Source: an uncultured Desulfobacteraceae bacterium (GTDB lineage: Bacteria > Desulfobacterota > Desulfobacteria > Desulfobacterales > UBA5852). From it: DNA of 64,000 nt. The notes under the pieces were generated by a model. It ran no database searches. It had not been told where the DNA came from and saw only the letters and a program-made list of their open reading frames with translations. The position numbers and the translations under genes are program-made. Shown one piece after another: positions 16,960 to 40,766 of the stretch; the first letter of the stretch is position 1, and each line of letters starts with the position of its first letter. The stretch lies in NCBI GenBank assembly GCA_942491115.1, contig CALNZV010000020.1, positions 896,524 to 960,523 of the forward strand, written 5' to 3'.

Positions 16960-17110
16960 GATACCCTTAAGGGACGCCGCTGCCGAGTGATGTTCCGCGG
17001 CCACCCCCTGTTGATGGAAACCTCCTTGACCATAACTGAATGAACACATAATATTTGGGTTGATGTTTTCCGCGCAATCCCGCGGTTAACGGATGGGGAG
17101 GAAACCCGAC

Positions 17111-19162: not shown

Positions 19163-20188
19163 TCAGGGGGCCGCTGCTTCAAACGCCGACCAGATCATCT
19201 CCGCCGCGTCGAAGCCCTTGAGGGAATGACCCTCTTCGAGCCCATCGGTAAAAAAGGGGCCTGGCCATACATGGCCCCACCCATCGATCGTATAGAGTAA
19301 AACCGCCGCCCCGCTCCGGCAGTCGCTCCATCGCTTCAGCTGAACGGCGCCGGAAAACAGTTGAGTGGTCAGGGGTGACGGTCTGCAGCCGTTCCGAATC
19401 CGCCAGGTGCGGACGGATTCTTCGACGCTCCAGTAAATCCGGGGTGTCCCCCTCCTCTGGCTGGGACTTCCGGAGTAGGGCACGTCCGTATCGTTCCTCC
19501 CGTGAATGATGACGAAGGGCACCGGGGCCACCGGTTCCGGAGGTGCGGGCGGGTGGTCCTCCCCGGCCACCGTACTGAAGACGGATGCGGCAAGGGCGGC
19601 GGCACCGGCTAACAACTCCCCTCGTTCTGCGGCGAAACGGTAAGTGAACATTCCACCGTTGGAGAACCCGACCATGTATATTTGTTGAGGGTTCACGGGG
19701 AATCGATCCACCACCTCCTGAATGGCGGCGGCCACGAAACCAACATCGTCGATATCGTCGTGGGCCGCCTTACCGCAACAGTGACCGGCATTCCAATGCT
19801 GAAGCAACCCGAGAATGCCGATCCCGTTGGGGTAGAGGACGATAAGTCCTTCTCTGTCGGCAAGGTCACTGAAACCCGTATACCGCTCCATCCCAGCGGC
19901 CGTATCAAACGCGCCATGAACAACGACGATCAGGGGGAGATCACCACGATCGGCGGCAGCGGGCGGCAGGTGCACATGGTAGGTGCGTCGAAATGTCCCT
20001 GTCACCCTGTCCGTCACGACCAGGTAGGTTCCGGAGGAATTCACGTCGCCCGAGGGCATCATCGGCACGCAACCGGCGGTCATGAGCACCGAAAGCCATA
20101 AAACGGCCGCCGGAGGCCATCGCCTCCCTTGGCTCAGGGCATGATTACCGTGCCGGCCGATGGCGTTCCTCACTGGTTCCTGAGGCAT
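19163..20188 (-). CDS. Alpha/beta hydrolase, PHB-depolymerase/LpqC-family esterase, lipoprotein
   Basis: Lipobox LMTAGC. Family blocks are VVVHG...LYPNG...WNAGHCCG, with nucleophile elbow GFSNGG. Confidence 0.8.
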   Translation of the reverse strand: MPQEPVRNAIGRHGNHALSQGRRWPPAAVLWLSVLMTAGCVPMMPSGDVNSSGTYLVVTDRVTGTFRRTYHVHLPPAAADRGDLPLIVVVHGAFDTAAGMERYTGFSDLADREGLIVLYPNGIGILGLLQHWNAGHCCGKAAHDDIDDVGFVAAAIQEVVDRFPVNPQQIYMVGFSNGGMFTYRFAAERGELLAGAAALAASVFSTVAGEDHPPAPPEPVAPVPFVIIHGRNDTDVPYSGSPSQRRGTPRIYWSVEESVRTWRIRNGCRPSPLTTQLFSGAVQLKRWSDCRSGAAVLLYTIDGWGHVWPGPFFTDGLEEGHSLKGFDAAEMIWSAFEAAAP

Positions 20189-23100
20189 CCAGGTTGCGGC
20201 CGGCCACCACCCACACCAATTCTCTGGGGGAACCGGACGGCTGAACGACTGTCACATTGAATCCATGGCGCCTCATCCTCTCGATCATCTCCTCCGGACG
20301 GCGATGGTGGAGCCCGATGCCGACGACCCGTGCCTTGAGATCTTCGATCCACCATGACCAGGGAAAGCGTCGGATAGGGGGCGTCACCACCCGCATCACC
20401 AGAACACCGGTAGACTTCAATCTGCGGCCCACCGCCTCCAATGTCAAATCGAGATTCATATCCGTCAGGTAATGGGTCATGTCCAGCATGAAGACCCCGT
20501 CGGCGGCCTCCGGCGGCTGGGGCACCTCAGGAGCCGCACCCTGGCGGATCTCCCCCCGCAATCCCAGAGCCCTCGAGGCCACACGGACGCGATCCGCCAA
20601 CGGTTCGATACCGAACACCCTGGCGTCGGGGAAGCGGGTCAGCAGCCAGGACGCCGGCACGCCGTATCCGGTGCCAATGTCGATGATGGTTTTCATGGGA
20701 TAAGCGGTCTCCAGGAGGTGATCCAACTCCTCGAACATGGGGTCCAGGCGCAGCTTGAAACGGGCGAAGAGCCGGGGATAGGCTTCCATGTTTCGGTACC
20801 GGTATCGGACGCTCGCCCCAATGGTTGACGGCGGGGGCGGACGGTCTACGAAGCGGCGATCCAAAATGGGCGGCAATATGAAAAACGCCCCTGTGAGCGC
20901 GTAGGCAATGGCCAGAAATGAGGTGATGCCGGCGGATTTGAGGAGAGCGTGTTCGGCCGTCAACAGGACGCCGAACCCGATTAGGGTCGAGGCCGAAGCC
21001 ATGAACACCGCCATTCGAATGAGGGTGAAATGCTCATGACTTCGGTTCTGATAACGCTGGTAGGATCGAACCCAGAACAGGGAGTAATCGATCCCCAGCC
21101 CGAGGACGATGATGGCCAGCATCAGGGAGGGGATGTCCAGGGGCCGGCCTATCAATCCGAGCGTACCCAGAGTGCAGACAAAGGAGAAGGCGATGGGCAG
21201 CAGGGATACCAGGGTCAACCGCCAGTCCACGAAAAAGAAAAAGAGGAGTACCACAACGCTGATGCCAAGGATGACGAGCATCCGAGAGAAGGTGTCAAAG
21301 AGAAGACGGCCCATTTGCTCTGAAAACAACAGTGGATCGAAGATTTTTGCTGTTTCAGCCAGGGATTCCCGAAATGCGTCGCCAGAATATCCGGGTCCGG
21401 TGCCCATTCCCGTGAACTGACGCCACTTGCCCGATTCCAGATCTCTGACGATCCCCATGAGATCGAGGGTTTCAGAAGGAATTCCGACCGTATCGTCACC
21501 GCTTCCCCTCACTGACAGCGTTTCCAAAAACGGCAAAAAGGCATCGGATGAAAAGCCGAATCGATCGCCAGCGCGATTCAGCTCGAGGCGAAGACCCCTC
21601 ACCCGTTGGGGGCTCCAGAATGCCGTCCAGGCGGACAGATTTGCCTCCCGACGTCCGGCACCGGGAAAGATATCGGAGGACAGAAAGCCAGACGTCACCC
21701 AGCCCTCAGCCCTGGCGGCTTCGACGATATCGAGAAGTCGGTCGTTTTTTTCCTGGAGGGCCGGGAGGGTGTCGGCCTCGGTCATGATAAATACCCGGTT
21801 GAACATGTCCCCCCACACCTCGGTGATGAGTTGATCGGCGGCCATGGTGGCATCGGTCACCGTCCCCATGGCCTTGAGATCCACGAGGAACCGGGGCCGC
21901 ATCCAAAATGCGAGGAGCACGGCGAGACCGAGACAGAGCCAGGCGCCGGTGTCTCCAGCACCCGCCAGCCGGTCCACCCACCCCCTCAAGGGCAGGATTC
22001 GCGCTTTGGGGGTCGGGGGCATCCGGGGGAGCATCAGGGGAAATACGGCGTGCACGAACAGAAAGGAAAACCCGATTCCCATGGCGGTGAACCATCCCAG
22101 TTGCTCGAAAACAGGGAAACCGCTGAAGCCCAGAACAGCGAATGCCCCCATGGACGTCAGCGCCGCCAGGAGTCCGACGGCCCACACTTCCCGGGAGGCG
22201 CCTCTGCCGTCACCACCCTGGGGCTGGTCCAGAAAGAGCAGATAGGCAATGCCGTGGTCGACCGTGATGGAGACAATGGCCCCGCCGAACCCAAGGGCCA
22301 TAATGGACAACGACTCCGTAAACAGGGAGGTGACAAAAAGGGCAGCGACGGTCCCGACGACGGCCGGCAGCAGGGCCAATAGCCCCAGCCAGGGTCGGGG
22401 AAAGGCCGCGATCAGCATGACAGCGATTCCCAGGGTGGCAAGAATCAGAGCGTTGCGCACGTCCTTTCGAACGATGGTTTCATTGTCGAGGGCGGCTCTG
22501 AATGCCCCCACCGGCGTCAGCGTGACATCGCTCCCGCCGATATCTCCGTCAGTGATCACCTGTTTTTCAACCGACGCCATGAGGCGATCGAGATTCCGGG
22601 CATCGGCCGTATTCGTTCCCGATCCAACGGGTCGGGCCACCACCAGCAGATGCCGGCTGTCTCCGGACAACAGTTTGCCCCTGTAGATGCGGGCGTCCTG
22701 GGTGGGCGCCAGATCGATAAGGCCCGACATCTTGAGCTCTCTCAGCCCCAATGGGTCTTTCGCAATCATTCCGGCTTGTCCGATCCCATCAAGGCGGGTC
22801 AACTGATCGTGAATGAGGCGGACCCTGTCATGGATGGCCCTAGTGCGGATCAGGGGCTGAACCTGGGCTTCAAGGGTCTTCTCGCTGAACAGGTAGGGTA
22901 GATGCGTGACGATTCGACCAACCAGATCCGGCAACCCCTTCTGAAAAGCGTCGACCCCGACGCTGGCGAAAAGCCCGCTTTCCTGAAAGCGTTTTTCCAC
23001 GGCGTCCCCGAGACTCACGAGTCGCTCAGGGTCCGGGGCGGGCAGCCCGATATCGACGGCGATCTGATCCTGGATGGGGTGATGCTTGAAAATATCCACC

Positions 23101-23270
23101 GCGTCGGAGACGGCACCGCCGTCGTCAGGCAAGGCGCTGACGACATCCGTATCCACATGAAGGCGGGTGAGGGAAAATCCCAACATTGCCGCCGTTATCA
23201 AAAGGACCGCTATAAGGAGGATCCAATTGACGGAACTGAGTTCCGTCACTTCCGGTGTCGTGCGATTCAA
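20145..23270 (-). CDS. MMPL/RND-type exporter fused to a C-terminal class I SAM methyltransferase
   Basis: 1041 aa. The first ~800 aa are two 6-TM bundles with large loops, as in APE-cluster MMPL exporters. The last ~230 aa (about 20148-20840) carry methyltransferase motif I IIDIGTGYGVPASW. Confidence 0.85.
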   Translation of the reverse strand: MNRTTPEVTELSSVNWILLIAVLLITAAMLGFSLTRLHVDTDVVSALPDDGGAVSDAVDIFKHHPIQDQIAVDIGLPAPDPERLVSLGDAVEKRFQESGLFASVGVDAFQKGLPDLVGRIVTHLPYLFSEKTLEAQVQPLIRTRAIHDRVRLIHDQLTRLDGIGQAGMIAKDPLGLRELKMSGLIDLAPTQDARIYRGKLLSGDSRHLLVVARPVGSGTNTADARNLDRLMASVEKQVITDGDIGGSDVTLTPVGAFRAALDNETIVRKDVRNALILATLGIAVMLIAAFPRPWLGLLALLPAVVGTVAALFVTSLFTESLSIMALGFGGAIVSITVDHGIAYLLFLDQPQGGDGRGASREVWAVGLLAALTSMGAFAVLGFSGFPVFEQLGWFTAMGIGFSFLFVHAVFPLMLPRMPPTPKARILPLRGWVDRLAGAGDTGAWLCLGLAVLLAFWMRPRFLVDLKAMGTVTDATMAADQLITEVWGDMFNRVFIMTEADTLPALQEKNDRLLDIVEAARAEGWVTSGFLSSDIFPGAGRREANLSAWTAFWSPQRVRGLRLELNRAGDRFGFSSDAFLPFLETLSVRGSGDDTVGIPSETLDLMGIVRDLESGKWRQFTGMGTGPGYSGDAFRESLAETAKIFDPLLFSEQMGRLLFDTFSRMLVILGISVVVLLFFFFVDWRLTLVSLLPIAFSFVCTLGTLGLIGRPLDIPSLMLAIIVLGLGIDYSLFWVRSYQRYQNRSHEHFTLIRMAVFMASASTLIGFGVLLTAEHALLKSAGITSFLAIAYALTGAFFILPPILDRRFVDRPPPPSTIGASVRYRYRNMEAYPRLFARFKLRLDPMFEELDHLLETAYPMKTIIDIGTGYGVPASWLLTRFPDARVFGIEPLADRVRVASRALGLRGEIRQGAAPEVPQPPEAADGVFMLDMTHYLTDMNLDLTLEAVGRRLKSTGVLVMRVVTPPIRRFPWSWWIEDLKARVVGIGLHHRRPEEMIERMRRHGFNVTVVQPSGSPRELVWVVAGRNLDASGTSEERHRPAR

Positions 23271-24575: not shown

Positions 24576-25439
24576 TCAGGGGGCGCGGACCATCCCCGAT
24601 GGCGGCGTCAGTCTACCGCCGCTCACATCCCGCATGGACAGTCCGGCGACGGTCTCTCTCAGCCGACCCCACCCATCCAGAATCCACAAATCGACGGTGA
24701 AACCGGTAGAATCAATCTCCCTGGGCTTGACGCAACAGTCATAGACCAAGCCCCCTTGCAGGGGGGCATTCACTACACGCCAGTCGATAGCCACCGGAAA
24801 ACCGACGATTCCCGCATACCGTTGCCCCCACACACACGCGACATGAAAAGCGGTGTCCAGGGGAAATCCCTTGCCCAGCAGTCGAACGGTTCTGTCTCCG
24901 GAGACCTCAGGGCTGAGAAGGCGGGCCCCCGCTCCCTCGGAAGATAGCGACACCGGTGATCCCAGGTTCCGGTAGGCGGGCCCGAAGGGCACGAAGTCTC
25001 TGTATATCGTTTCCGGACTTATGGACTCCTCGGTCCGGAGGGCGGCGGGGTCGACAGGCGGTATCGAAGGCGGTGGGGATTCCCTTGAAAACACTGCCCG
25101 TGCATGGGTTTTGGTGCGGGTGATGGCGGCCCCCGGAGCCCGAGAACGGGTGACAAGAGCGGCACCCAACGCACCGCTTTCCAGGACCTCCAGATCGACA
25201 TACGCACCGATCCGGGGGCTGTGGTGATCGAGGTAAAGGAACTTCTCAAAGCGAATCGCCCTCATGACCGTTACCGGGCGGTCCGGATCATGGGATCGAA
25301 CGCCTCGCGCGAGCACTTCCATGGCGTCCACAGCCGGAAGGACCGCCCTGCCCAACAGATGATGGTCGCCGGCATAGTCAGGGATGCCGAAGGTCGCGGG
25401 AAGCCGCTCCCTCCGGCCTAGATCGGGAATATGTCCCAT
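24576..25439 (-). CDS. Free-standing polyketide-synthase-type dehydratase (double hotdog, PS-DH)
   Basis: The N-terminal half has HHLLGRAVLP (HxxxGxxxxP) and the C-terminal half has DTAFH (DxxxH/Q). ATG at 25439 (MGHIPDL...). Confidence 0.75.
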   Translation of the reverse strand: MGHIPDLGRRERLPATFGIPDYAGDHHLLGRAVLPAVDAMEVLARGVRSHDPDRPVTVMRAIRFEKFLYLDHHSPRIGAYVDLEVLESGALGAALVTRSRAPGAAITRTKTHARAVFSRESPPPSIPPVDPAALRTEESISPETIYRDFVPFGPAYRNLGSPVSLSSEGAGARLLSPEVSGDRTVRLLGKGFPLDTAFHVACVWGQRYAGIVGFPVAIDWRVVNAPLQGGLVYDCCVKPREIDSTGFTVDLWILDGWGRLRETVAGLSMRDVSGGRLTPPSGMVRAP

Positions 25440-25897
25440 AGCTGCACCGTCTTCTGGTCCACTTCTACCGGGATGCCGGAGGCATTGACCGCGCAGTGGC
25501 GGGTGAATCCCCGACACACGATATCGGTACCGTCGGTTCGGGTGATGACGTAGTCGAACTGTAGCCGAACCCGCTCCATGGGACCCGGTCGGGTATGAAT
25601 GTACATGGCGTCATCGTAGTGGAGGGGCAGATAATAGTCGATGTCCACCTTGATGATGGGGTACACATACCCGCTTTCCTCGATCTCGCGGTAAGGGTAG
25701 GCCGCATCCCTCATCAAAGACGCCCGTCCGTATTCAAAATACCGCAGATAGTTGGCATGATACACCACCTGACTCCTATCAGTGTCGGCATACAGGGTCC
25801 GCAGGTCGCATCGATGCCACACCCGGCCGCTGATCGTCTCCCGCACGTAGCAAGGATGGCTGTTCAGGGGGTCGGTGACAAACGGTTTGGGTTTCAC
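25418..25897 (-). CDS. Acyl-CoA/ACP thioesterase, YbgC/4HBT hotdog family
   Basis: Motifs are DTDRSQVVYHANYLRYFEYGR and the YbgC-like core. GTG start with a GAGGAG RBS, 4 nt after the KS stop. Confidence 0.85.
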   Translation of the reverse strand: MKPKPFVTDPLNSHPCYVRETISGRVWHRCDLRTLYADTDRSQVVYHANYLRYFEYGRASLMRDAAYPYREIEESGYVYPIIKVDIDYYLPLHYDDAMYIHTRPGPMERVRLQFDYVITRTDGTDIVCRGFTRHCAVNASGIPVEVDQKTVQLWDIFPI

Positions 25898-25900
25898 ACG

Positions 25901-27166
25901 CTACACTCCTCTGAAAACCAGACAGCAGTTGGTCCCCCCGAAACCGAAAGCGTTGGTCAGCACCGTCTCGTGGGGATGGCGGCGGGAATGGTTCGGGACC
26001 ACATCCACATCGGCCAAGGCCGGGTCCGGAATATGGTTGATCGTCGGCAGCAACAGCCCCTGTTGCATACCCTCGATGGCCAGGACCGCTTCGACCGCCG
26101 CCGCCGCACCGAGGGAATGACCCAGCTGGGATTTGTTGGAAGATACCGGCAGCCGCGCCAGAAGGGGACCGAACACCGTCCGCAGGCTTTCGATTTCAAC
26201 CAGGTCCCCCTTGCTGGTGGATGTGCCGTGGGCGTTGACATAGTGGATGTCAGCGGGGGAGAGGCCGGCATCGTCGATGGCTTCGTGAATGGCTCGAACC
26301 ACCGTCGTTTGATTGGGCCGCGTAAAGTGATGGGCATCCGAGGTCCAGCCGACACCGAGGACCTCCGCTTTGGGGGACAACCCCGACGATTGCATCACCT
26401 CTTCGGCGGCCAGAACCAGCACGCCTCCTCCCTCCGCCAGCACGAACCCCTTCCGGTCGATACTGAAGGGCCTTGAGGCCTGGCCCGGATCCCCATGGGC
26501 CCGGTCATTGGAGCCCACCTTGATGGTTGCCCACATATTGGCAAACCCCTGGATAATTTCAGGGACAAGGCACATTTCCACCCCGCCGGCGAGGGCAAAG
26601 TCACAGTCCCCGTCGCGAATCATTCGGGCGCCCAAGGCAATGGCATGATTCCCGGAAGCACAGGCACCCTGGGGGGAAAAGATGGGGCCGGTAAATCCCA
26701 GCATCATACTGGCCTTTCCGGCCGGCACGTTGGCGCAGAGATTGGGCAGGAGATAGGGGCTGATCTTTGTGGGCCCATGGCGGGTGTAGTTTTCCATGGC
26801 CACTCGGTAAGCGTCGGTACCGTTGAGGGCGGAGCCGACCAAGCAGGCGGTTCTGGGACCGGCGTCCCCGTCGATGACCAGGCGGGCATGACTCAGGGCC
26901 CGTTTGCAGAGGACCATGGTCAGGTGGACGAAGCTCGCCTCCCAGTTACCGGCATCCCGCCCGCCGATCCCGTCGATGGCGCGCGGATCCCAATCCGGGA
27001 TTTCCCCAACCACATTGCTCCGTGTGTCCACCCGACAGCGGGTAAGGGTCCTGAATCCGCTCTCGCCCCGCACCGCCCGCTCCCAGGTCCGCTCCAAATC
27101 GTTACCAAGGGCGGTGGCGACATCGTAGCCGACAACGAAAACCCGTCTATTGAGAGGTGCTTTCAT
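25901..27166 (-). CDS. Beta-ketoacyl-ACP synthase (KS), catalytically complete
   Basis: Active-site Cys (GACASGNHAI), His (NAHGTSTSKGD) and His (LGHSLGAAAA). ATG at 27166 (MKAPLNRRVFVVG...). Confidence 0.9.
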   Translation of the reverse strand: MKAPLNRRVFVVGYDVATALGNDLERTWERAVRGESGFRTLTRCRVDTRSNVVGEIPDWDPRAIDGIGGRDAGNWEASFVHLTMVLCKRALSHARLVIDGDAGPRTACLVGSALNGTDAYRVAMENYTRHGPTKISPYLLPNLCANVPAGKASMMLGFTGPIFSPQGACASGNHAIALGARMIRDGDCDFALAGGVEMCLVPEIIQGFANMWATIKVGSNDRAHGDPGQASRPFSIDRKGFVLAEGGGVLVLAAEEVMQSSGLSPKAEVLGVGWTSDAHHFTRPNQTTVVRAIHEAIDDAGLSPADIHYVNAHGTSTSKGDLVEIESLRTVFGPLLARLPVSSNKSQLGHSLGAAAAVEAVLAIEGMQQGLLLPTINHIPDPALADVDVVPNHSRRHPHETVLTNAFGFGGTNCCLVFRGV

Positions 27167-27182: not shown

Positions 27183-28433
27183 TCAGCCCCATCTCCGAAA
27201 AACGATGCATGCGTTGCAGCCTCCGAAACCAAAGGCGTTTTTGAGCACATATTCCTGTTGGACACTCCGGCTGCCTTCGGCCACACAGTCGATGTCAAGT
27301 TCCGGGTCGGGCCTGTGGTTGATCGTCGGCGGCAGCCGCTGATCCTCGAGTCCCCGAAGGGCAAAAATGGCTTCGATGGCGCTGGAAGCCCCCATGGCAT
27401 GGCCGGTCAGGGATTTGTTGGCGGTTACCGGCGGCAGTTGCCCACTGAAAACCGCTTTCAAGGCCTCCACCTCCACCTTGTCGCCGACCCGGGTCGACGT
27501 GGCATGGGCGTTGATCGCATCGATGCGATCGGGGCCGACACCCGCATCGGATATGGCCTCGGCAATGCATCGAGTAACGGTTTCCGGATAGGGCGAGACA
27601 AAGTGGTGGGCGTCCGAGGTCATGGACCATCCGGCAACCCCACAAGAATAGGGCAATCCGTGGGTGTTGGCGAACTCCGGCGTGGCGATGACGATGCATC
27701 CGGCCCCTTCTGAAATCACGAACCCCCTGCGGCCGGCGGAAAAGGGGCGACTGGCCCGCTCCGGAGGCTCAGGCGGAGCGCCTTCTTTAGGGACGTAGGC
27801 CCCGTTCATCGTCGCAAACCCGGCAACGATGGGTTCGACGAGGGCCATGTCCACCGCACCGCAGATGGCCACGTCCGCTCGGCCCAGAGCCAGCAGCATG
27901 GTACCGACGATGACCGAAGTGACCCCCGTTGCGCAAGCGGTGATGGTGGCGCTGATGGGCCCCCTTGCTCCCGTCCACATGGACACGACGCCCCCGACCA
28001 TGTTAATGCAGGCATTGGGGTTGGACCACGGCATGGGAAGCCGTCCCTCGGCGATCCACCGCCGGTCCGCCGCCAATAAGGCGTCCACTCCCCCCACAGC
28101 GGAACTGTAGGTCACCGCCACGCGGGGAGCTATTTCCGGCGTGATGATCAGGCCGCTTCTCTCCAGGGCGCGGTGAACGGTCAGAAGTGCAACCTTGAAA
28201 ATCGGTGACGGCCACCTTGCCTGCTCTCTTGCCGACAGAAACGGATAGGGCAAATGGTCGATGGCGTCGATCTCTCCGGCGATTTGCACCGGAAAATCCC
28301 TGTCGGTTGGGAACCGTGTCAGGAGGCCGACGCCGCTCCGGCCCTCGAGGGCCCGTTGCCATTGGTCCTCGAGCTCTATTCCCAAAGGAGATACGGCGTC
28401 GTAACCGATAATGACGGGGGCATTGGTTTTCAT
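27183..28433 (-). CDS. Beta-ketoacyl-ACP synthase (KS), catalytically complete
   Basis: Active-site Cys (TACATGVTS), His (NAHATSTRVGD) and His (TGHAMGASSA). It sits in tandem with the preceding KS. Confidence 0.9.
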   Translation of the reverse strand: MKTNAPVIIGYDAVSPLGIELEDQWQRALEGRSGVGLLTRFPTDRDFPVQIAGEIDAIDHLPYPFLSAREQARWPSPIFKVALLTVHRALERSGLIITPEIAPRVAVTYSSAVGGVDALLAADRRWIAEGRLPMPWSNPNACINMVGGVVSMWTGARGPISATITACATGVTSVIVGTMLLALGRADVAICGAVDMALVEPIVAGFATMNGAYVPKEGAPPEPPERASRPFSAGRRGFVISEGAGCIVIATPEFANTHGLPYSCGVAGWSMTSDAHHFVSPYPETVTRCIAEAISDAGVGPDRIDAINAHATSTRVGDKVEVEALKAVFSGQLPPVTANKSLTGHAMGASSAIEAIFALRGLEDQRLPPTINHRPDPELDIDCVAEGSRSVQQEYVLKNAFGFGGCNACIVFRRWG

Positions 28434-28456: not shown

Positions 28457-29455
28457 CTACCAGGGAATGAACTGGTAGAGTTTGGCAAACATCTCATAGA
28501 TTTCGATCCAGTTTTGAAGATCCCGGGAGCTTCTCATGTGGGCCCGCTTGTTCACCATCACCCAGCTCATATGGGCCGCTCCGTCCTTGCAGGTCGTGCA
28601 GTCCCGGGTTTCGGAGGTGCAGCATCGGTGCATGGTGTCGAGATCGGAGGCCCACCGGATGAAATTGGTCAGCCGTTTGGGTTTAGGGGATCGATCGTCG
28701 AGGGGGTCGGAAACCGAGGGGCATTCCATCCAGCCAAACCGCCGATCCAGCATTTTCCCGGTGGTGATGATTTCATGGTAATACTTGGAGGAGATGACGG
28801 TATCGGGGTAGGCCTCCAGCATCTCATCCATTTCATCACGGATGGCCGACAGTTCCCCTGTTGTCCAACTGAATCCGTCGACCCCTTCGTCGTTGGACAG
28901 CAGCTGCATGTGCACCTTGAGGCCCGCATCTCGAATTTTTCGAATAACGTTCTCGGTTTTGCCGATCTGTTTAGGGGTAATGGTAAAGAGATAATAGGTG
29001 TGTGGGTCCCCTTCGTAGTTCTTGCTGGAGACGGCAAACGTGTCTTTCCCCCGAAGGGTCGTTTCGTCCGCCTCGTCGCCCCAGAGGGAAATGCCGATCA
29101 TCATGTCGGGAAACCGGTCCCTGGGAACCTTGATCAACCCGTTGGTAGCGCAGAAAGTGGGCAGCCGCCGGTAGAATGCCTCCACCCGGTCAAGGCAGAG
29201 GGTCGGCTCGCCGCCAATAAGAATGGCCAGATTGACCCCTCGCCCCATCTCCTTGTCGACGAATGCTTCCCATTGACGGAGGTCGGTTTCCTCGGGGGCG
29301 GCCTCGTGCTCGCCGGATGAAAAGAAGAAGCACCCCTTGCAGCGCAGATTGCAGCGGTTGGTGACGTCGTAGATCGAGCTTCTGATGTTAAGCTTGGAGA
29401 TGCGCTTGTAGCGTTCGTACCAGTGTGCGTCCAGAAGGGAACTGACGGTTTTCAT
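28457..29455 (-). CDS. Radical SAM protein (paralog B of a tandem pair), C-terminal CC-x6-DC-xx-C motif
   Basis: CNLRCKGC (CxxxCxxC) at ~aa 35 and a C-terminal RCCTSETRDCTTC. AGGAG RBS, ATG at 29455. Confidence 0.85.
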   Translation of the reverse strand: MKTVSSLLDAHWYERYKRISKLNIRSSIYDVTNRCNLRCKGCFFFSSGEHEAAPEETDLRQWEAFVDKEMGRGVNLAILIGGEPTLCLDRVEAFYRRLPTFCATNGLIKVPRDRFPDMMIGISLWGDEADETTLRGKDTFAVSSKNYEGDPHTYYLFTITPKQIGKTENVIRKIRDAGLKVHMQLLSNDEGVDGFSWTTGELSAIRDEMDEMLEAYPDTVISSKYYHEIITTGKMLDRRFGWMECPSVSDPLDDRSPKPKRLTNFIRWASDLDTMHRCCTSETRDCTTCKDGAAHMSWVMVNKRAHMRSSRDLQNWIEIYEMFAKLYQFIPW

Positions 29456-29466
29456 CGGTGGCTCCT

Positions 29467-30591
29467 TCAGTCGGAGGGCAGCTCGAAGCCGGGAGGAGAT
29501 ATCGGGACGCTGCACAAGGGCGATCCCTTGATATAGGGCATCACCCATACAGCCAGATAATTGTCCACATAGTCAAGCCAAGAGCGGAAGGTGGCCGGGT
29601 CGACGGCATGGCGGAACAGCCGTGCCGTCACGATCGCGCTTCCGGCGGCATAGTGGCGGCAGTCATGGCAGTCGGTGTCCGGAACGCAGCAGGCGGCGTC
29701 CCGGTTCCAGGTCAGATTTGCCCGATACTGGCGGAAGGACCGGCTCAACCCGATGGTGGCGGACGGCTGGCGACGGGGATAGGGGCATCCGAACAGGCTG
29801 TGAAGCCCCATGGGATGCGTATGGACGACGGCATTGTATCGGGAGAACAAGACATGGTCGGGGAACGCCGCCAGCAGACGGTCCATCGTCTTCCGGGTGT
29901 TGGCGAGGGAGGCGTCGGTATGCCCGAGATCACCCCTGTAGCCGACCGGGGCCGAAAACATGTTGAAAGTCACCCGGCAATCTTCTTGAGCCAGACGGCC
30001 GACGACCTCCTCGGATTCGGAAATGTTGTACCGGGTAAAGGTGTAGACGAACACGGCACGGGAATCCCCCCGGTAGTTGTCGATCTGTCGATCCAGCATG
30101 TGCTTTGCGTTTCGGACCCGGAGGCTGGTCCGGTCATTGCCCCATACGGATAGGTGAATTCGGTAGCCGATGTCGTCCGGAAACCGCTTCAGTCCGTTGG
30201 TGGCGATGGCGCCCAAAGGAATAGCGTCGTAACAGACACGGCACCGGTCGATGGCAAGGGAGGGCTCCGCCCCGGCAAGCACCACGAATGTGACGCCCCG
30301 TGCTTTCTCCGCGGCCATGAGGGCTCGCCAATCGCCGATGGCCTCGTTGTCGGTGACGAGCTGCTTTTCGCCTTCGTAATAGTAGCATCCGTCGCATCGG
30401 ATGTTGCACCGGGACGTCATGTCGTAAGTGGACTCCCGAAGAAAAAAATAGCGACGAACCTTTTCCCACCGGTTTTTCACCTCGGGAGCTGAAATGAGAT
30501 CGCTGAATTTGCAGGGCGGATCCACTTGGTTGCCAGCTGATTGCCGAAAGGGTTGAGGTGCCGTGGTCACGATCGCTTCCGTTCCCCGCAT
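29467..30591 (-). CDS. Radical SAM protein (paralog A of a tandem pair), C-terminal CC-x5-DC-xx-C motif
   Basis: CNIRCDGC motif and a C-terminal ACCVPDTDCHDC. It can be aligned by eye with the downstream paralog over its whole length (STYDMTSRCNIRCDGCYYY vs SIYDVTNRCNLRCKGCFFF, ATNGL, WG, NY.GD). Confidence 0.85.
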   Translation of the reverse strand: MRGTEAIVTTAPQPFRQSAGNQVDPPCKFSDLISAPEVKNRWEKVRRYFFLRESTYDMTSRCNIRCDGCYYYEGEKQLVTDNEAIGDWRALMAAEKARGVTFVVLAGAEPSLAIDRCRVCYDAIPLGAIATNGLKRFPDDIGYRIHLSVWGNDRTSLRVRNAKHMLDRQIDNYRGDSRAVFVYTFTRYNISESEEVVGRLAQEDCRVTFNMFSAPVGYRGDLGHTDASLANTRKTMDRLLAAFPDHVLFSRYNAVVHTHPMGLHSLFGCPYPRRQPSATIGLSRSFRQYRANLTWNRDAACCVPDTDCHDCRHYAAGSAIVTARLFRHAVDPATFRSWLDYVDNYLAVWVMPYIKGSPLCSVPISPPGFELPSD

Positions 30592-30592
30592 G

Positions 30593-30853
30593 TCACGCCG
30601 CCAGCTTCTGCTGCAGATATTCCGCTATCAGGCGAACGGTTGTCAGTTTGGGGTAATCGTCTTCGTCAATCCTGACACTGTAGTCATCCCTGAGAACCAG
30701 GGCAACCGTTGCCAGATCCATGCTGTCGATCCCCACCTCGTCGACGAGGTCGATATCCGGATCGAAAGTTTCGGGGGTGACATCTTCAAGTTTCAATTCA
30801 TTGATCATGATTTCTGCCACGCGCAGAATGGTTTGGTCCAGATCTGTCGACAT
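30593..30853 (-). CDS. Acyl carrier protein
   Basis: 86 aa, acidic, with phosphopantetheine Ser motif GIDSMDLATV. Confidence 0.88.
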   Translation of the reverse strand: MSTDLDQTILRVAEIMINELKLEDVTPETFDPDIDLVDEVGIDSMDLATVALVLRDDYSVRIDEDDYPKLTTVRLIAEYLQQKLAA

Positions 30854-30920: not shown

Positions 30921-31328
30921 TCAAGGCACCGGCCGTTCGAGTTCCATGATGCCCGAGCAGCAAAGCTCCCCCCGGCTGAATAGTTTAAAGGAATAGGCTT
31001 GCCCACTCTCGTCGATGGGCAAGGCCTCGATGGATAGGGTATCGTCCGGGTGTATGGCCAGCTTGAATCGAACCCTTCGCAGTCGGGATACCCGGGCAGT
31101 ATTGCCAGTGTGACGCCCCAGCATCTCCTCGACCAGGCACAGTTGAGCGACACCGGGCAGAATCGGCTCTTGTGGGAAATGGCCGTCGAACCAGACCGCA
31201 TCTTCCGGTATCTTCCTTTCGGATCGAATCGGCTCCGGGGACAAGGGGCGGGGCGGTCGTGGTGGTTCCAAAGCCATATTGCTCCATGTGTCGACGGCTG
31301 GCAGCGGGCCCTGAACTGGGGGTCTCAT
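30921..31328 (-). CDS. FabA/FabZ-type 3-hydroxyacyl-ACP dehydratase (ApeI-like hotdog)
   Basis: Motif FDGHFPQEPILPGV (catalytic His). It starts 4 nt after the B12-rSAM stop. Confidence 0.8.
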   Translation of the reverse strand: MRPPVQGPLPAVDTWSNMALEPPRPPRPLSPEPIRSERKIPEDAVWFDGHFPQEPILPGVAQLCLVEEMLGRHTGNTARVSRLRRVRFKLAIHPDDTLSIEALPIDESGQAYSFKLFSRGELCCSGIMELERPVP

Positions 31329-31331
31329 CTG

Positions 31332-32681
31332 CTAGCACCTAAGCATTTCCCAAAGAGGGCCTTTATACCCTTTTTCATAGAGTCGAAGCAAGGTCCGGGC
31401 CGTCTCCTGCCCACCGGATCCGATCACCCAGTTCGGCCGGTCTTTCCCTGCAGCCTCCAGCTGCCGGTGAATCGCCCGGCTGTCGACGAACGGGGAGCGG
31501 TAGAACACCGGCGACAGAAGATCCTGATCGACCGTCACCTGCCCTTCTTTTAGGGCCCGGTCATAGAGTGCGGTATTGGGATAAATCCTCATACCGCAGA
31601 AAAAAAACAGCACACAGTTCCTCAACCCCTGAGCGGTCTCCAGGGTGTCGTCGAGAGTCTCCTGGGTTTCTCCCGGTCCTCCGAGTAGCAGGTAGTGGGC
31701 CACATGGAGACGGGACGCCAGCGCGGACCGATGGGCGTCCAGGGCCTCCTGCCGACGAAAAGGCTTCCCGTAGGCTTCCAGAACCGGGTTGCAGAACGAC
31801 TCGGTCCCGAATTCCACATGGGTCAGGCCAGCGCTCCTCAGCCTTTCGAAATACCGGTCGGGCATCCGGTTCGGAATAAAAAAGGCTCCCCAGGGAATGG
31901 AAAGCCCTGATTTACGGAAGTGTTCTGCAACCGATAGGCTGTGATCGATATCGGCGTTGAAGGCGGAATCGGTGATGAACAGATAGGCGGCCCCCGCCCG
32001 CTGAAGAGCCATGGCCGTATCGGCCACCTCTTCGGGGTCGATGAGCCGCAGCCGACGTCCTTCGATGTGGGGGTAGGTGCAGTAGATGCAGCGAAAACAG
32101 CACCCTCTGTGGGTCTGGAGGTTCAGCATCCCCCCCTTGTTGAGGTAGAAACCCAAATGGGCCGTTTCCGGATCGAACCGACGGTGAAAGGAACGGGTCA
32201 GGGGACGGGGGACATCGACCCCTTCCGAAGCCACCATGACCCCGGTCAGCAGTCGGGGATCCTCACCCTTTTCCAGGGCGTCGACCAGACGGACCAAGCG
32301 CTCTCCTTCCCCCACAATGCCGTAGTCGGCTCCCAGCGCCCCCATCATCTGGGATGGGAAAATGGTAAAGCCGCTGCCACCGAGTACGATCGGAGCCCCA
32401 CTGGCAGCTTTGAGCTCACCGATCATCTTCCGGTAGCCGTCCATGAATCCTTTGGGGTCCTGGGCCTCGGTGTTGTCCACATTCCGGATCGACACACCGA
32501 TCAGGCCGGGATCAAACCCCCGCACCTGGCCACTGAGATCCGCCATGGACGACAGGGTATTCACGTCCATGATCCGGACCTCGTGGCGGTCTCCTATGGC
32601 CCCGGCGACATAATCCAACCCCAGGGGATAGACCGGATAGGGGTCGATGGAAGTGTTTGCGGAAACCAGCAGTATTCTCAT
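31332..32681 (-). CDS. Cobalamin-binding-domain (class B) radical SAM protein
   Basis: The N-terminus MRILLVSANT...PLGLDYVAG is a Rossmann-like B12-binding-type domain, followed by HRGCCFRCIYC (CxxxCxxC). Its ATG overlaps the KS-CLF stop (ATGA). Confidence 0.85.
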   Translation of the reverse strand: MRILLVSANTSIDPYPVYPLGLDYVAGAIGDRHEVRIMDVNTLSSMADLSGQVRGFDPGLIGVSIRNVDNTEAQDPKGFMDGYRKMIGELKAASGAPIVLGGSGFTIFPSQMMGALGADYGIVGEGERLVRLVDALEKGEDPRLLTGVMVASEGVDVPRPLTRSFHRRFDPETAHLGFYLNKGGMLNLQTHRGCCFRCIYCTYPHIEGRRLRLIDPEEVADTAMALQRAGAAYLFITDSAFNADIDHSLSVAEHFRKSGLSIPWGAFFIPNRMPDRYFERLRSAGLTHVEFGTESFCNPVLEAYGKPFRRQEALDAHRSALASRLHVAHYLLLGGPGETQETLDDTLETAQGLRNCVLFFFCGMRIYPNTALYDRALKEGQVTVDQDLLSPVFYRSPFVDSRAIHRQLEAAGKDRPNWVIGSGGQETARTLLRLYEKGYKGPLWEMLRC

Positions 32682-34843
32682 GGGGGAGACACCACGACGG
32701 CAGAGACGACCTGCCCCAGTCCGAGCACGAGAATCGATCCACTGACGGCATTGATTCCAAGCCGAGGCGGCCGGGGTCGGAACGATCGCCGTTTGTCCAC
32801 CAGGGATGCCGCCAATACCGTGGCCACGGCGGATGCGGCGGCATAGTTCCCGGTCAGTTCACGATAGTCGATCCGGTGGTCGCTGTAGCCGGTCAAACGG
32901 GAAAACGCCTTCAGTTGATTCTGGGCGCTGTCGGTTTCTGCCGCCGGGATTCCCGCCAGCAGGAGGCCGAACCGGTTCTTGACCCCTGTCCGCCCTCCCA
33001 GACGCTTCACCAGCTCGTCCACAGAAGGGGGTCCGTCCAGGCCGATCTCGATGTGGACGGTCTCGACCGTCGGGGCCCCGGGGATCGCCTCCCGGGTCAG
33101 TACCAGAGCCCCACCGCCATCCGACGGATCCCCATCGGCGGATACCGACGAGTCGAATAGGGGCGAGAGAACCGGATGGCCTTCGTCGGCGCCGACCACC
33201 AGAACCGCCCCTGCGTCGGGAGCCAACAGCTCGGCGGATAAGAGGGCCTGCTCAAAGGAGTCGTTGCCGCCGGTGAGAGTCAAATTGACCCCCTTCGCAC
33301 CGGTCATCATGGCCACCTGGCCAGCAGGCGCATTGTGCACGGAACCGATAAAATCCGTTGGGCTGGCAAACTGTTCGCCGCTCTCGAAAAGGGCGGTAAG
33401 AAAATCGTGGGTCTCCGACAGCGATCCCCAAGCCGTTCCGGCGAATACCGCTTCGATCGGACCTGGGAAATCGGTGTGTTTGATGGCTTCAGCAGCCAGT
33501 ACCATGGTCATCAGAGATAGCCGTTTGACACGGCGAATGGCTGGGCTTGGCATCATCCTGCCCACCTCAGCGGCCGGGTATCGTCCCCGGCAGGATTTCC
33601 GGAGCCGGATCCGATCAAGGGTTTCAAGGGTCATACCGGCCCCGGTAATGGCAGACCACCCCGCTACCCGAAGCCGACCGTCGTCAGGGGTGTCGATTTT
33701 CCGCCGGTCCGGGTTACTGCGACCAACCACCACGGCCCCGTTGTTTCCTCCGAAACCGAATGCGTTGACGAGGATCTTTTCCGGTCGGATCCGAAGCGGC
33801 GCCGCCAAGGGCTCGACGCCAAGGGCCGGGTCCGGCACCCGGCAGCCGCTGTTGGCGGGGATCACCCCCCGGTCGATGGATAGAGCCGCCATCACCGTTC
33901 CGATGGCACCGGCGGCGGCAAGGCTGTGCCCCGTCGCCCCCTTGACCGAAGAAAACGGAGGCATTCTGTCACCGAAAAGAGAACGCACGGCACCCATCTC
34001 TATGCGGTCGTTGTCGATAGTGCCGGTGCCATGGAGATGAATGGCATCGATGTCCCCGGCCTCAAGACCCGCCCGGTCCAAGGCCAGCCGCATCGCAGAC
34101 AGAGCCCCTTCACCCTCCGGATGGGGTAGGGTCGGATGGAAGGCATCGCAGCTTAAGCCGGCACCCATCAATTCGATCCGATCACAGGCCGCTTCGGAGG
34201 CCTCAAGCAGGCACATGGCCGCCCCTTCCGCCACCGAGAGGCCTCGGCGATCCGCATCCAGCGGCCTGGCACCCAACGGATCGATCAGTTTCAGAGATCT
34301 AAACCCATAGTAGGTCAGGCGGCACAGGGAGTCCACACCTCCGACAAGCACTCGCTTGGCCCGACCGGCTCTCAACAACGCCAGGGCCAGAGCCAGGGCC
34401 GACACCCCGGAGGAGCAGGCTGTGGTTACCGTCAATACCGGTCCGCGGCAGCGGTAGCGCCGGGCCAGGGCGACCGCCACCGTACCCAGCCCGTGCTGGC
34501 TGAAATCGCCGGCGACGCCGTCGCCGAAACGCAGACGGTCCTCGGTCATGTCCATGCCGCCGGTAGTGCTTCCAACGACGATGACATCAGGGGGCTGCAG
34601 GGGGTGCCCCATGGCTTGGTCCGACGCCTGTATGGCCAACTGATGCGCCACCGGCATTCCTGGCTTCAAAAGACCCGGAGGAGCCTCGCCCACTATTAGG
34701 GGGCGATGGGAGGCGGGTTTGAACCGTGTCAGCGGGGCCAATCCGCTTCGACCCAAGGTCAGCGCCTTGACGGTGTCTTCCAGGCCGCAGCCGAGAGCCG
34801 AAACGATGCCCATACCACGAATATAAACGGGAAGAACGGTCAC
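32678..34843 (-). CDS. Fused beta-ketoacyl synthase + chain-length-factor-like domain (KS-CLF)
   Basis: The N-terminal half is a complete KS (TACSSGVSA, HGTGTIDND, GHSLAAAGA, FGFGGNN). The C-terminal half (about 32681-33690) is KS-like without the Cys (TGGNDSFEQAL) and has SVHNAPAG, typical of ApeC-type CLF. GTG start overlaps the ACP stop. Confidence 0.85.
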   Translation of the reverse strand: MTVLPVYIRGMGIVSALGCGLEDTVKALTLGRSGLAPLTRFKPASHRPLIVGEAPPGLLKPGMPVAHQLAIQASDQAMGHPLQPPDVIVVGSTTGGMDMTEDRLRFGDGVAGDFSQHGLGTVAVALARRYRCRGPVLTVTTACSSGVSALALALALLRAGRAKRVLVGGVDSLCRLTYYGFRSLKLIDPLGARPLDADRRGLSVAEGAAMCLLEASEAACDRIELMGAGLSCDAFHPTLPHPEGEGALSAMRLALDRAGLEAGDIDAIHLHGTGTIDNDRIEMGAVRSLFGDRMPPFSSVKGATGHSLAAAGAIGTVMAALSIDRGVIPANSGCRVPDPALGVEPLAAPLRIRPEKILVNAFGFGGNNGAVVVGRSNPDRRKIDTPDDGRLRVAGWSAITGAGMTLETLDRIRLRKSCRGRYPAAEVGRMMPSPAIRRVKRLSLMTMVLAAEAIKHTDFPGPIEAVFAGTAWGSLSETHDFLTALFESGEQFASPTDFIGSVHNAPAGQVAMMTGAKGVNLTLTGGNDSFEQALLSAELLAPDAGAVLVVGADEGHPVLSPLFDSSVSADGDPSDGGGALVLTREAIPGAPTVETVHIEIGLDGPPSVDELVKRLGGRTGVKNRFGLLLAGIPAAETDSAQNQLKAFSRLTGYSDHRIDYRELTGNYAAASAVATVLAASLVDKRRSFRPRPPRLGINAVSGSILVLGLGQVVSAVVVSPP

Positions 34844-35121
34844 GAGGGAAGCGGGGCCGATGAATTCTTGATGCAGCCGGCCATGGTTCGAAGGGATGCA
34901 AACACCTCGGCGCCCCGCTCTTTGCTGTCGATGACGATTCCGTAGTCTTTTTCCATCATCATCACCAGTTCCAGAACGTCGATGGAATCAATGCCAAGCC
35001 GCCCGCCCACCAAAGGCTCGTCCGGATCGATGCCGTTCGGATCGACAGTGGCAAGATTCAGCAGTTCGACGATTTTTAGTTTCAGCTGGTCTATCAGATC
35101 GTCCATGGCTATCCTGTCCAC
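34840..35121 (-). CDS. Acyl carrier protein
   Basis: 93 aa with Ser motif GIDSIDVLELV. It is the first gene of the minus-strand core operon. Confidence 0.85.
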   Translation of the reverse strand: MDRIAMDDLIDQLKLKIVELLNLATVDPNGIDPDEPLVGGRLGIDSIDVLELVMMMEKDYGIVIDSKERGAEVFASLRTMAGCIKNSSAPLPS

Positions 35122-37933: not shown

Positions 37934-39238
37934 ATGAAGATCTTGCTTATCTATCCCCGGTGGCCAAAGCTCAGCCGCCAAACCGAGTTTCACCTCCCTC
38001 CCCATGGCCCGGTGGTTTTTGCCGCCGCCCTCCCCGGGGATGTGGAGGTCGAATTCATCGACGAGAATCTGGAAACCGTCGATACCGACGCCGATGTCGA
38101 CCTGGTGGCCATTTCCATGATGCTGACCCTTCAAGTCAAACGGGGGTGGGAGATCGCCGGGGCCTTTCGCCGCCGGGGGGTCAAGGTCATCTTCGGGGGC
38201 ATCGCCACGATGCTCCATGCCGAGGAAACCAAGGCCCATGGGGATGCCATCTTCCTGGGAGAGGCTGAGGGACGCATGGAGGAAGTCATCTCCGATTTCA
38301 GGCGTGGACGGTTGAAAGGCGTCTACGACTACCTCGACAGTCCGCCTCCCATCGAATCGGTGGGGACCGCCAGGCGGGATCTGCTGAAGCGGAACCTGTA
38401 CAACTACAAAGGCGTTCAGATGGTGGATCTTGTCCACGCGTCGAGGGGCTGCCGCTACAACTGCTACCCCTGTTGCGTGGCCTTTCTGGGGGGGCGACAG
38501 TTCAGGCCGCGGCCGGTACACAAGGCGGTGGCTGAAATGGCGGCCATCGACAACAACCGCCTGTTCATCGTGGACAACTCACTGGCCCAGGACACCCAGT
38601 GGGAAAAAGATCTCTTCAAGGCCATGATCCCGTTGAAGAAGCATTGGTGCAGCCACCCCATCGAAGACCGTTCCGACATCCTTGACCTGGCCGCCCAGGC
38701 GGGGGCCTGGTATGTCTATCAGGCCGTGTTCGACACTTCCGATCATATTCGGGAGCGCATCCGGCGCTACCATGACCACGGCATCGGCGTGGAGGGAACC
38801 ATTCTTCTTGGACTGGACGACCAGACCGAAGACGATATTCTACGCCTGGTGGATTTTCTGCAGGAGATCGAGCTCGATCTGGCGGAATTCACGGTGCTCA
38901 CTCCGTTTCCCCACACCCAGGCATACAGGGATCTCAACGGGCAGAACCGGATATTCTCCACCGACTGGAACGACTACTCCGCAGAGAAGGTGGTCTTCCA
39001 GCCCAAACACATGTCCCCAGGCCGGCTCCAGGAGCTGCTGGCCTATGCCTGGGACAGCTTCTACCGAGATGAACCCCAGGAAATCAAGATGTTCAAGCTA
39101 CTCCAGCGGGTGGTGGCGAAGGAAAAGGCCCAGGACACCTTCCGTCCTCGCAACCGGGATCTCGCCGGGATGGCCTTCGGCCGAAACACGGCCGGAGACG
39201 TGCCGGATGACCCCGAGGACCGTCAGTCCAGATCCTGA
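37934..39238 (+). CDS. Cobalamin-binding-domain (class B) radical SAM protein
   Basis: MKILLIYPRWP... is a B12-type N-terminal domain, followed by SRGCRYNCYPC (CxxxCxxC). It is the last gene of the plus-strand operon. Confidence 0.85.
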   Translation: MKILLIYPRWPKLSRQTEFHLPPHGPVVFAAALPGDVEVEFIDENLETVDTDADVDLVAISMMLTLQVKRGWEIAGAFRRRGVKVIFGGIATMLHAEETKAHGDAIFLGEAEGRMEEVISDFRRGRLKGVYDYLDSPPPIESVGTARRDLLKRNLYNYKGVQMVDLVHASRGCRYNCYPCCVAFLGGRQFRPRPVHKAVAEMAAIDNNRLFIVDNSLAQDTQWEKDLFKAMIPLKKHWCSHPIEDRSDILDLAAQAGAWYVYQAVFDTSDHIRERIRRYHDHGIGVEGTILLGLDDQTEDDILRLVDFLQEIELDLAEFTVLTPFPHTQAYRDLNGQNRIFSTDWNDYSAEKVVFQPKHMSPGRLQELLAYAWDSFYRDEPQEIKMFKLLQRVVAKEKAQDTFRPRNRDLAGMAFGRNTAGDVPDDPEDRQSRS

Positions 39239-40707: not shown

Positions 40708-40766
40708 GGTACCTCACTAACCCGACGCCGCCAAATAACTGCTTTCAATGGCGGAGGCGGTGGGGG

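Follow-up and report, generated by a model that had tools for sequence, protein, structure and literature searches.

The window analysed here, a stretch of 64,000 nucleotides (nt) from an uncultured Desulfobacteraceae bacterium (contig CALNZV010000020.1), carries on its minus strand two adjacent genes for radical S-adenosylmethionine (SAM) proteins, rSAM-A (29467-30591, 374 aa) and rSAM-B (28457-29455, 332 aa). Both belong to an unnamed, uncharacterised and widespread family tied to carrier-protein chemistry, which lies inside the radical-SAM superfamily and is not a new kind of system. The explanation towards which we lean, with modest confidence, is that rSAM-A and rSAM-B are two anciently diverged, autonomous tailoring enzymes which act on acyl or polyketide chains tethered to a carrier protein, each of them probably with one auxiliary iron-sulfur cluster.

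rSAM-A is the A-type member of the family and is separated by 11 nt from rSAM-B, its B-type paralogue, which is better conserved than any other gene of the module; a further 23 nt separate rSAM-B from the first ketosynthase (KS) gene, KS_a. Read directly, the sequence across the spacer between the pair (29456-29466, minus strand) and the codons that flank it is TGA-AGGAG-ccaccg-ATG, with the Shine-Dalgarno box immediately past the TGA stop of rSAM-A. The mechanical open reading frame (ORF) of rSAM-B has 363 aa (28457-29548). Considering that all 120 homologues listed for rSAM-B (83-95% identity) are exactly 332 aa long and that an AGGAG box is located 6 nt 5' of the ATG at 29455, this ATG was taken as the real start. 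When the two proteins were compared by BLASTP, 30% identity and 47% positives were obtained over 315 aa (E = 1e-39), a paralogy far above chance. A previous sequence-only reading of the window had described two adjacent genes of 374 and 332 aa that can be aligned along their length, and the blocks that it quoted, among them STYDMTSRCNIRCDGCYYYEGE / SIYDVTNRCNLRCKGCFFFSSGE and ACCVPDTDCHDC / RCCTSETRDCTTC, were all found in the translations. Its description of the flanks was equally accurate: an acyl carrier protein (ACP) gene (ACP1, 30593-30853) precedes rSAM-A with a gap of 1 nt and two KS genes follow the pair (27183-28433 and 25901-27166, or 27400 for the longer frame).

No Pfam or NCBIfam model describes rSAM-A and rSAM-B beyond the generic radical-SAM core. 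PF04055, whose gathering threshold is 29.5 bits, was matched by rSAM-B with 30.3 bits and by rSAM-A, below the threshold, with 19.2 bits, and in both cases only its N-terminal part (the first ~60-70 profile positions) was covered. There was no match to the B12-binding domain PF02310 in either protein, the CX3CX2C motif being preceded by 61 residues in rSAM-A and 34 in rSAM-B, and TIGR04072 (cutoff 360 bits) was not among their NCBIfam matches. The named radical-SAM families were rejected as candidates, their NCBIfam matches reaching 15-31 bits versus cutoffs of 180-855 and extending little beyond the CX3CX2C region. A phmmer search of the PDB gave nothing under E = 0.08, and the profile of the family matched SkfB (E = 3e-17) in the core only. 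These hidden Markov model searches agree with the earlier remarks that the family could not be recognised and that a B12-type N-terminal domain is lacking.

The conservation of individual residues was measured on 48 full-length relatives with 23-64% identity to rSAM-A. The invariant columns were, in the numbering of rSAM-A, C62, C66, C69, G107, E109, N132, G133, R160, C301, C308, and C311. The first three form the CX3CX2C motif of the radical-SAM [4Fe-4S] site (30385-30408, minus strand), whose counterpart in rSAM-B (C35, C39, and C42; 29330-29353, minus strand) is invariant too. G107 and E109 belong to the SAM-binding motif of the GGE type. The other cysteines are located in the C-terminal part, in rSAM-A as C269 ... 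C301-C302-x5-C308-x2-C311 (29659-29787, minus strand), the predicted site of an auxiliary cluster, and in rSAM-B as C245 ... C278-C279-x6-C286-x2-C289 (28589-28723, minus strand), where the five are invariant in an alignment (A4) that takes rSAM-B, rSAM-A, and distant A-like sequences together. C302, the second cysteine of the CC pair, was present in 37 of the 48 relatives. The upstream cysteine was misaligned by MAFFT; hence the 48 sequences were scanned directly, and all of them had a cysteine 20-37 residues upstream of the C(C)x5-7CxxC motif. The auxiliary motif of the family can be written as C-x(20-37)-C(C)-x(5-7)-C-x2-C. Both paralogues retain the CX3CX2C and G(A/G)E motifs together with four further invariant cysteines, and the possibility that one of them is an inactive scaffold was ruled out, every motif being invariant in both. 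Taking into account that four cysteines outside the SAM site are what one auxiliary [4Fe-4S] cluster requires, it is probable that each protein holds one such cluster, predicted to be of the twitch-like type.

AlphaFold2 models of both proteins were examined (predicted local distance difference test, pLDDT, of 81 and predicted template modelling score, pTM, of 0.84 for rSAM-A; 83 and 0.85 for rSAM-B). In both it is possible to see the alternating strands and helices of a partial triosephosphate isomerase (TIM) barrel, followed by a C-terminal part with two short beta bridges right before the CC motif and long helices after it. In rSAM-B the putative twitch-type region, two short beta bridges and then helices, had pLDDT values of 42-72. 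Foldseek related the models with probability 1.00 to many radical-SAM structures. Its matches in the PDB included SuiB, BlsE, CteB, anSME, viperin, MoaA, and LipA for rSAM-A, and BlsE, ChlB, anSME, CteB, viperin, and GDGT-MAS for rSAM-B. The SPASM/twitch enzymes (SkfB, SuiB, CteB, anSME, BtrN, BlsE, and MoaA) were the best structural and profile matches, and they share with rSAM-A and rSAM-B the CX3CX2C core, the partial TIM barrel, and the extra cysteines at the C-terminus. In the twitch type a single auxiliary [4Fe-4S] cluster is held in a shortened SPASM-like domain, with its cysteines flanking a beta-hairpin and a helix past the core. Unlike SPASM proteins, rSAM-A and rSAM-B gave no Pfam match to PF13186, their conserved extra cysteines are just four or five, and the seven-cysteine CX2CX5CX3C pattern, which serves two auxiliary clusters, is absent. 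The sequence-only reading had taken the conserved cysteines at both C-termini for a putative auxiliary Fe-S site in a layout other than the canonical SPASM/twitch one; the absence of PF13186, the conservation of C301, C308, and C311 in all 48 relatives, and the structural neighbours of the SPASM/twitch class go along with this prediction. Loss of the C-terminal cysteines among homologues, which would have spoken against the sequence-only reading, was not observed. The family is near the SPASM/twitch neighbourhood and outside every solved or named family.

The same matches bring in three other explanations. Considering that the solved proteins nearest to the pair, both in sequence and in fold, modify peptides (SkfB, SuiB, CteB, ChlB, and anSME), the pair might have no action on an acyl chain and might mature a neighbouring protein, peptide, or cofactor, as many SPASM/twitch relatives do. 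However, no RiPP-recognition element (RiPP, ribosomally synthesised and post-translationally modified peptide) or precursor-peptide gene was seen, the sole small gene that is invariably adjacent encodes a normal ACP, and the fusions found in the family go to thioesterase (TE) and docking domains of polyketide synthases (PKS) and to AMP-ligase domains. The genomic partners of rSAM-A and rSAM-B are ACPs and ketosynthases, whereas those of the SPASM/twitch enzymes are peptides or sugars; we consider a maturase role very improbable. Hardly more credible is sulfur insertion, in which the extra cluster would be a sacrificial sulfur donor, as in lipoyl and biotin synthases, and the carrier-bound chain would be thiolated. 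Lipoyl synthase (LipA), which is among the structural matches, acts on an octanoyl chain bound to a carrier domain, and two paralogues could form two C-S bonds. Nevertheless, LipA was matched weakly (E about 1e-4 to 1e-5) and beneath the SPASM/twitch enzymes, and the auxiliary motif of LipA, an N-terminal CX4CX5C with a C-terminal serine, is absent from rSAM-A and rSAM-B as read from their sequences.

The third of these explanations, oxidative decarboxylation or terminal-alkene chemistry on the free acid after release by the thioesterase, in the manner of BlsE, AhbD, and HemN and leading to hydrocarbons, has more points on its side and is still unlikely. The decarboxylase BlsE was the best whole-chain structural neighbour (TM-scores of 0.46-0.53), there were weak N-terminal NCBIfam matches to AhbC, AhbD, and NirJ, a thioesterase belongs to the conserved module, and one relative carries a fused thioesterase where a PKS ends. 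In addition, polyunsaturated hydrocarbons were reported in Desulfotalea psychrophila, which bears a similar cluster (PMC2649909), although they were never linked to the cluster by proof. Against it, the two genes lie between the ACP and the ketosynthases and not after the thioesterase, and the similarities mentioned are generic to the radical-SAM core.

In a set of 5.8 billion proteins there were 2047 homologues of rSAM-A (about 65-70% identity) and 1907 of rSAM-B, and the names listed for them were generic only ("radical SAM protein", "hypothetical protein", or generic JGI radical-SAM labels). An exhaustive search of 1.84 billion representative proteins revealed a compact superfamily, with 387 clusters at E <= 1e-3, of which 71 reached E <= 1e-30. 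By scanning one genome per species with a query alignment narrower than that of the 48 sequences, a relative of rSAM-A was found in at least 571 species genomes. Among them are Desulfosarcina variabilis, D. widdelii, D. cetonica, Desulfogranum japonicum, and Desulfosudis oleivorans, the locus of the last one coming from a metagenome-assembled genome assigned to that species, as well as Syntrophobacteraceae, Smithella, Desulfatiglandales, Spirochaetota, and SAR324.

Synteny was counted by tblastn with the proteins of the window against the 80 best loci. The B-type gene was directly downstream of the A-type gene in 70 of 70 loci, ACP1 was directly upstream of the A-type gene in 72 of 74, and KS_a came downstream of the pair in 60 of 62; a B12 enzyme of the TIGR04072 type was located at most 5 kb upstream in 53 of 66. 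In median identity across loci, B came first (82%), ahead of ACP1 (78%), A and KS_a (67% each), and the B12 enzyme (55%). The order ACP-A-B-KS-KS is kept across several phyla, and its smallest version was found in two SAR324 loci (L043 and L078) as FabG-ACP1-A-B-KS_a-KS_b-TE, with a dehydratase (DH)-like gene next in L043. No enoyl reductase was found among the genes identified in the conserved module.

Relatives of the family in other gene contexts were also analysed. A neighbour-joining tree separated three clades, the A-type, the B-type, and a diverse third one. A metagenomic locus (L084) has the order KS-KS-[A-like]-[B-like]-ACP-KS; one copy is 46% identical to rSAM-A and 29% to rSAM-B, the other 36% to rSAM-B and 26% to rSAM-A. 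From these identities it follows that the duplication is old and that the pairing of A-like and B-like genes recurs, and on the tree the A-type and the B-type appear as old, separate lineages. An A-type radical-SAM gene and a gene for an 86-aa ACP form a two-gene cassette in L081/L082 (10001-11255) and in L083 (10001-11285), the latter in a Reinekea-like genome. The surroundings of these cassettes are polysaccharide loci with GT47-like and GT61 glycosyltransferases, sulfotransferases, epimerases, and WcbI, with no ketosynthase nearby. The cassette suggests an unusual acyl decoration of the glycan. An AT-rich relative (P0252), for which an anammox origin had been guessed, was found to belong to polysaccharide loci as well. 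In a Pyrinomonadaceae genome (L085) an A-type gene stands alone in a locus ordered DH-KS-ACP-rSAM-...-B12 rSAM-AMP ligase.

Members of the B-type clade were found in PKS surroundings. P0350 (L087, 8001-10175) is a fusion of a TubC-docking domain, a type I thioesterase, and a radical-SAM domain placed right after a 1754-aa PKS module, and it could be a "Rosetta stone" tying the radical-SAM family to the release of PKS chains. P0377 is a fusion of radical-SAM and AMP-binding domains, in a trans-acyltransferase-like PKS cluster the stop of P0418 overlaps with the beginning of an AMP-ACP-KS gene, and P0427 is 4.5 kb from a type I PKS. The common denominator of the contexts of the family is carrier-protein or acyl-transfer chemistry, and this supports a substrate tethered to an ACP. 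The proposal made from the letters alone, that the pair acts on an ACP-bound chain, is accordingly well supported by context: an ACP gene adjoins the radical-SAM gene in the 72 of 74 loci already mentioned and in four unrelated contexts (L081/L082, L083, L084, and L085), and the PKS docking and thioesterase fusion, the AMP-ligase fusion, and the overlap with the AMP-ACP-KS gene give further support.

The other half of that proposal, that the two proteins form a heteromer, fared less well. An obligate heteromer, in which only the A/B complex would act on the ACP-bound chain, is consistent with the invariable adjacency in 70 of 70 loci, with the 11-nt spacer carrying a Shine-Dalgarno box, with the pairing kept in the distant cluster of L084, and with the unusual conservation of rSAM-B, whose median identity of 82% extends across orders. 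On the other side, both proteins retain all catalytic and cluster motifs, A-type members occur with no B-type gene nearby (L081/L082, L083, and L085), and B-type members stand alone in PKS surroundings or are fused to thioesterase or AMP domains. The occurrence of each paralogue type alone at other loci indicates that either can function without the other. Mirror-tree partial correlations over 50 loci with a complete module were also calculated, giving 0.55 for A-KS_a, 0.36 for B-ACP1, 0.28 for B-KS_b, and only 0.23 for A-B, the expected positive control KS_a-KS_b itself reaching just 0.05. With its control failing, the test is uninformative here; at best it hints that A varies along with KS_a, and B with ACP1 and KS_b. 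We rank two enzymes that tailor the chain autonomously, in steps that are probably consecutive, above the obligate heteromer, which we regard as a doubtful though serious alternative.

For two autonomous enzymes the following scheme can be proposed. Each protein would bind the SAM-cleaving [4Fe-4S] cluster through CX3CX2C and, as we infer, one auxiliary [4Fe-4S] cluster through the four invariant cysteines of its twitch-like C-terminal region. rSAM-A and rSAM-B would be translated together with ACP1 and the two ketosynthases, inside an aryl-polyene or "ladderane-type" cluster of type II fatty acid synthase (FAS)/PKS enzymes. Each would generate a 5'-deoxyadenosyl radical and abstract hydrogen from a (poly)unsaturated chain bound to ACP1 while KS_a and KS_b extend it. 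The substrate radical could then be resolved by electron transfer to the auxiliary cluster, leaving either an additional C=C bond or a C-C link, as a ring closure or a crosslink. Desaturation or C-C ring closure is favoured on two grounds: the conserved module is devoid of an enoyl reductase, and the electron could be taken up by the auxiliary cluster. The two proteins would carry out two distinct, probably consecutive steps, not those of a catalytic subunit and a scaffold subunit, and the product would be a modified lipid handed over to the LolA-like and MMPL export genes of the cluster.

Several points weigh against this scheme. Gene adjacency is no proof that the substrate is bound to the ACP, and the one third-clade member that was examined adjoins MBOAT and SGNH acyltransferase genes with no ACP. 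In both models confidence is low in the loops that bear the cysteines, whose geometry is predicted only; this is to be expected in cluster-binding loops since the models were built without metal. The structural neighbours had TM-scores of 0.52 or less (0.46-0.53 for BlsE) with 10-19% identity, values so low that a reaction type cannot be transferred from them. Finally, literature searches found no characterised member of the family and no paper assigning a reaction to it.

By comparison with published clusters, the pair resembles one described by Rattray et al. in 2009 (PMC2649909), who reported FAS-like clusters of Kuenenia stuttgartiensis that are syntenic with those of Desulfotalea psychrophila, Geobacter, and Pelobacter. 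Common to these clusters are the adjacent "SAM radical enzymes" Kuste3343/Kuste3342, with the homologues DP1855/DP1853, and also an MMPL-like membrane protein, an AMP ligase, a polysaccharide-deacetylase-like protein, and a glycosyltransferase (PMC2649909). Like rSAM-A and rSAM-B, these are adjacent non-B12 radical-SAM pairs in FAS-like clusters. As described in PMC2649909 and PMC4790861, the clusters contain several FabF paralogues, ACPs, FabG/FabZ, an AMP ("phenylacetyl-CoA") ligase, and the deacetylase-like, glycosyltransferase, and MMPL-like genes, all of which the window has as well, and the B12 radical-SAM gene next to our pair passes the cutoff of TIGR04072, "rSAM_ladder_B12", another likeness to the ladderane clusters. 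Judging by these published cluster descriptions, rSAM-A and rSAM-B are probably the Desulfobacterales counterpart of Kuste3343/3342 and DP1855/1853, and work on whole clusters in 2006-2009 had probably noticed the gene pair already. The Kuste and DP pairs are as uncharacterised as ours: kuste3342 and kuste3343 were expressed in E. coli by Javidpour et al. in 2016 and the proteins were undetectable (PMC4790861), and both later structural work on anammox FabZ and FabF and a 2026 review state that none of the radical-SAM enzymes of these clusters has been characterised.

There are also differences. The host here is a Desulfobacterales-type bacterium and not an anammox one, whereas ladderanes have been reported from anammox bacteria only, and the clusters of Desulfobacterota that antiSMASH labels "ladderane" are acknowledged to be of unknown function. 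In the examined part of the window there was no phytoene-dehydrogenase-like gene, in which it differs from the proposed ladderane clusters. Cluster look-ups with 22 proteins, 20 of them representatives of related clusters, returned no anammox names.

The cluster was also compared with those for aryl polyenes (APE). It is like them in having a ketosynthase with its chain length factor (CLF), at least two ACPs, FabZ/ApeI-like dehydratases, a ketoreductase, a 4HBT thioesterase, a LolA-like protein, an MMPL transporter, a glycosyltransferase, an LpxL-like acyltransferase, a methyltransferase, and an AMP ligase of the aryl-acid type. It differs from them by the addition of six radical-SAM genes to this toolkit; we know of no canonical APE cluster that contains radical-SAM genes. 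As for radical-SAM enzymes that modify lipids, Jaw5 is HemN-like, GDGT-MAS was among the weak matches of our pair, and no kinship of sequence family beyond the core was found between rSAM-A/B and either GDGT-MAS/Tes or the Jaw5/C10P cyclopropanases. These enzymes functionalise inert carbons of lipids or polyketides (PMC13459092), and Jaw5 does so while the PKS chain grows.

With members in at least 571 species genomes, the family is widespread and highly conserved, and it has had neither a name nor a model beyond the generic radical-SAM ones. In anaerobic sediment bacteria, which are abundant, it probably marks a radical chemistry that works on polyketide or fatty-acyl chains, the contexts examined lying beside carrier-protein or PKS genes. 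The product of the six-radical-SAM cluster is likely to be an unusual envelope lipid, which bears on biomarker geochemistry; a 2026 review counts just two ketoacyl lipids, ladderanes and jawsamycin, for which modification by radical-SAM enzymes has been proposed. It seems rather improbable that the pair founds a new class of carrier-protein-dependent radical-SAM enzymes which form C-C bonds (ring closure) or introduce double bonds without oxygen while a polyene or acyl chain grows. If Kuste3343/3342 were true orthologues, the family would include the long-sought ring- or precursor-forming enzymes of ladderane-type pathways, and these would become open to study in cultivable Desulfosarcina, Desulfogranum, or Desulfosudis. 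Considering that cultivable hosts exist (Desulfosarcina variabilis, D. widdelii, Desulfogranum japonicum, and Desulfosudis oleivorans), the problem is easier to approach than in anammox bacteria, for which there is no genetic system.

The cluster extends over about 15.5-44.1 kb of the window and, by Pfam and NCBIfam, carries a full toolkit of the aryl-polyene type: a KS-CLF, three further KS genes, three ACPs, three hotdog dehydratases, FabG, a 4HBT thioesterase, a LolA-like protein, an MMPL/HAE3 transporter fused to a methyltransferase, GT25, an LpxL-like acyltransferase, a polysaccharide deacetylase, and an AMP ligase that is weakly 4-coumarate-ligase-like. The genes around the pair are all on the minus strand. 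ACP2 (34840-35121; PF00550) overlaps by 4 nt the 721-aa KS-CLF fusion (32678-34843; PF00109/PF02801/PF13723), which in turn overlaps by 4 nt the B12-binding radical-SAM gene of the "lipid biosynthesis/ladderane" family (31332-32681; TIGR04072, 399.5 bits against the cutoff of 360). After 3 nt comes a FabZ/ApeI-like dehydratase (30921-31328; PF07977 and PF22818), syntenic across loci, and a gap of 67 nt separates it from ACP1 downstream, which has 86 aa, a DSM serine motif, and a PF00550 match with E = 7e-9, its stop being 1 nt from the start of rSAM-A.

Downstream of the pair, the FabF-like KS_a (27183-28433; PF00109/PF02801) has an intact Cys/His/His triad and is separated by 16 nt from KS_b (25901-27166), the second FabF-like ketosynthase, with His/His/Lys motifs and its cysteine in GACASG. 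The ORF of KS_b runs to 27400 (499 aa), and the Pfam and NCBIfam matches start at residue 84-85. The start at 27166 (MKAPLNRR) was preferred because it fits these domain boundaries; the KS_b query was matched in related loci. The 78-codon upstream extension, which overlaps the end of KS_a, is probably not translated. After a gap of 3 nt there is a 4HBT-type thioesterase (25418-25897; PF13279/PF03061), also syntenic, which overlaps the gene of a 313-aa PKS-dehydratase-like protein (24576-25517) with a weak PF14765 match and conserved synteny across loci.

Six radical-SAM genes are contained in about 29 kb: rSAM-A, rSAM-B, three B12-binding ones, and one of the SPASM type. The SPASM-type gene (17093-18220, plus strand; PF04055 and PF13186) is weakly AhbD/NirJ2-like. 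The second B12-binding gene (37934-39238, plus strand) gave no PF04055 match in Pfam and has CRYNCYPC at residue 173, and the third one is located at 39223-40707 on the minus strand. A plus-strand ORF of 573 aa at 39427-41148, with no family matches and an odd composition rich in G, V, H, and D, appears to be an antisense shadow of this third gene.

Other genes of the window deserve mention. At 20145-23270 (minus strand) there is a 1041-aa transporter of the MMPL/HAE3 type, within the resistance-nodulation-division (RND) group, with a C-terminal SAM-dependent methyltransferase, kept downstream of the module in many related loci. Just past the acyltransferase of the cluster, a 612-aa fusion (44844-46682, minus strand) joins a Dak2/FakA-like domain and a fatty-acid-binding DegV domain, both of them components of fatty-acid kinase. 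Outside the cluster, at 8341-9717 (minus strand), a protein with a metallo-beta-lactamase domain and a double rhodanese has an architecture like that of persulfide dioxygenases.

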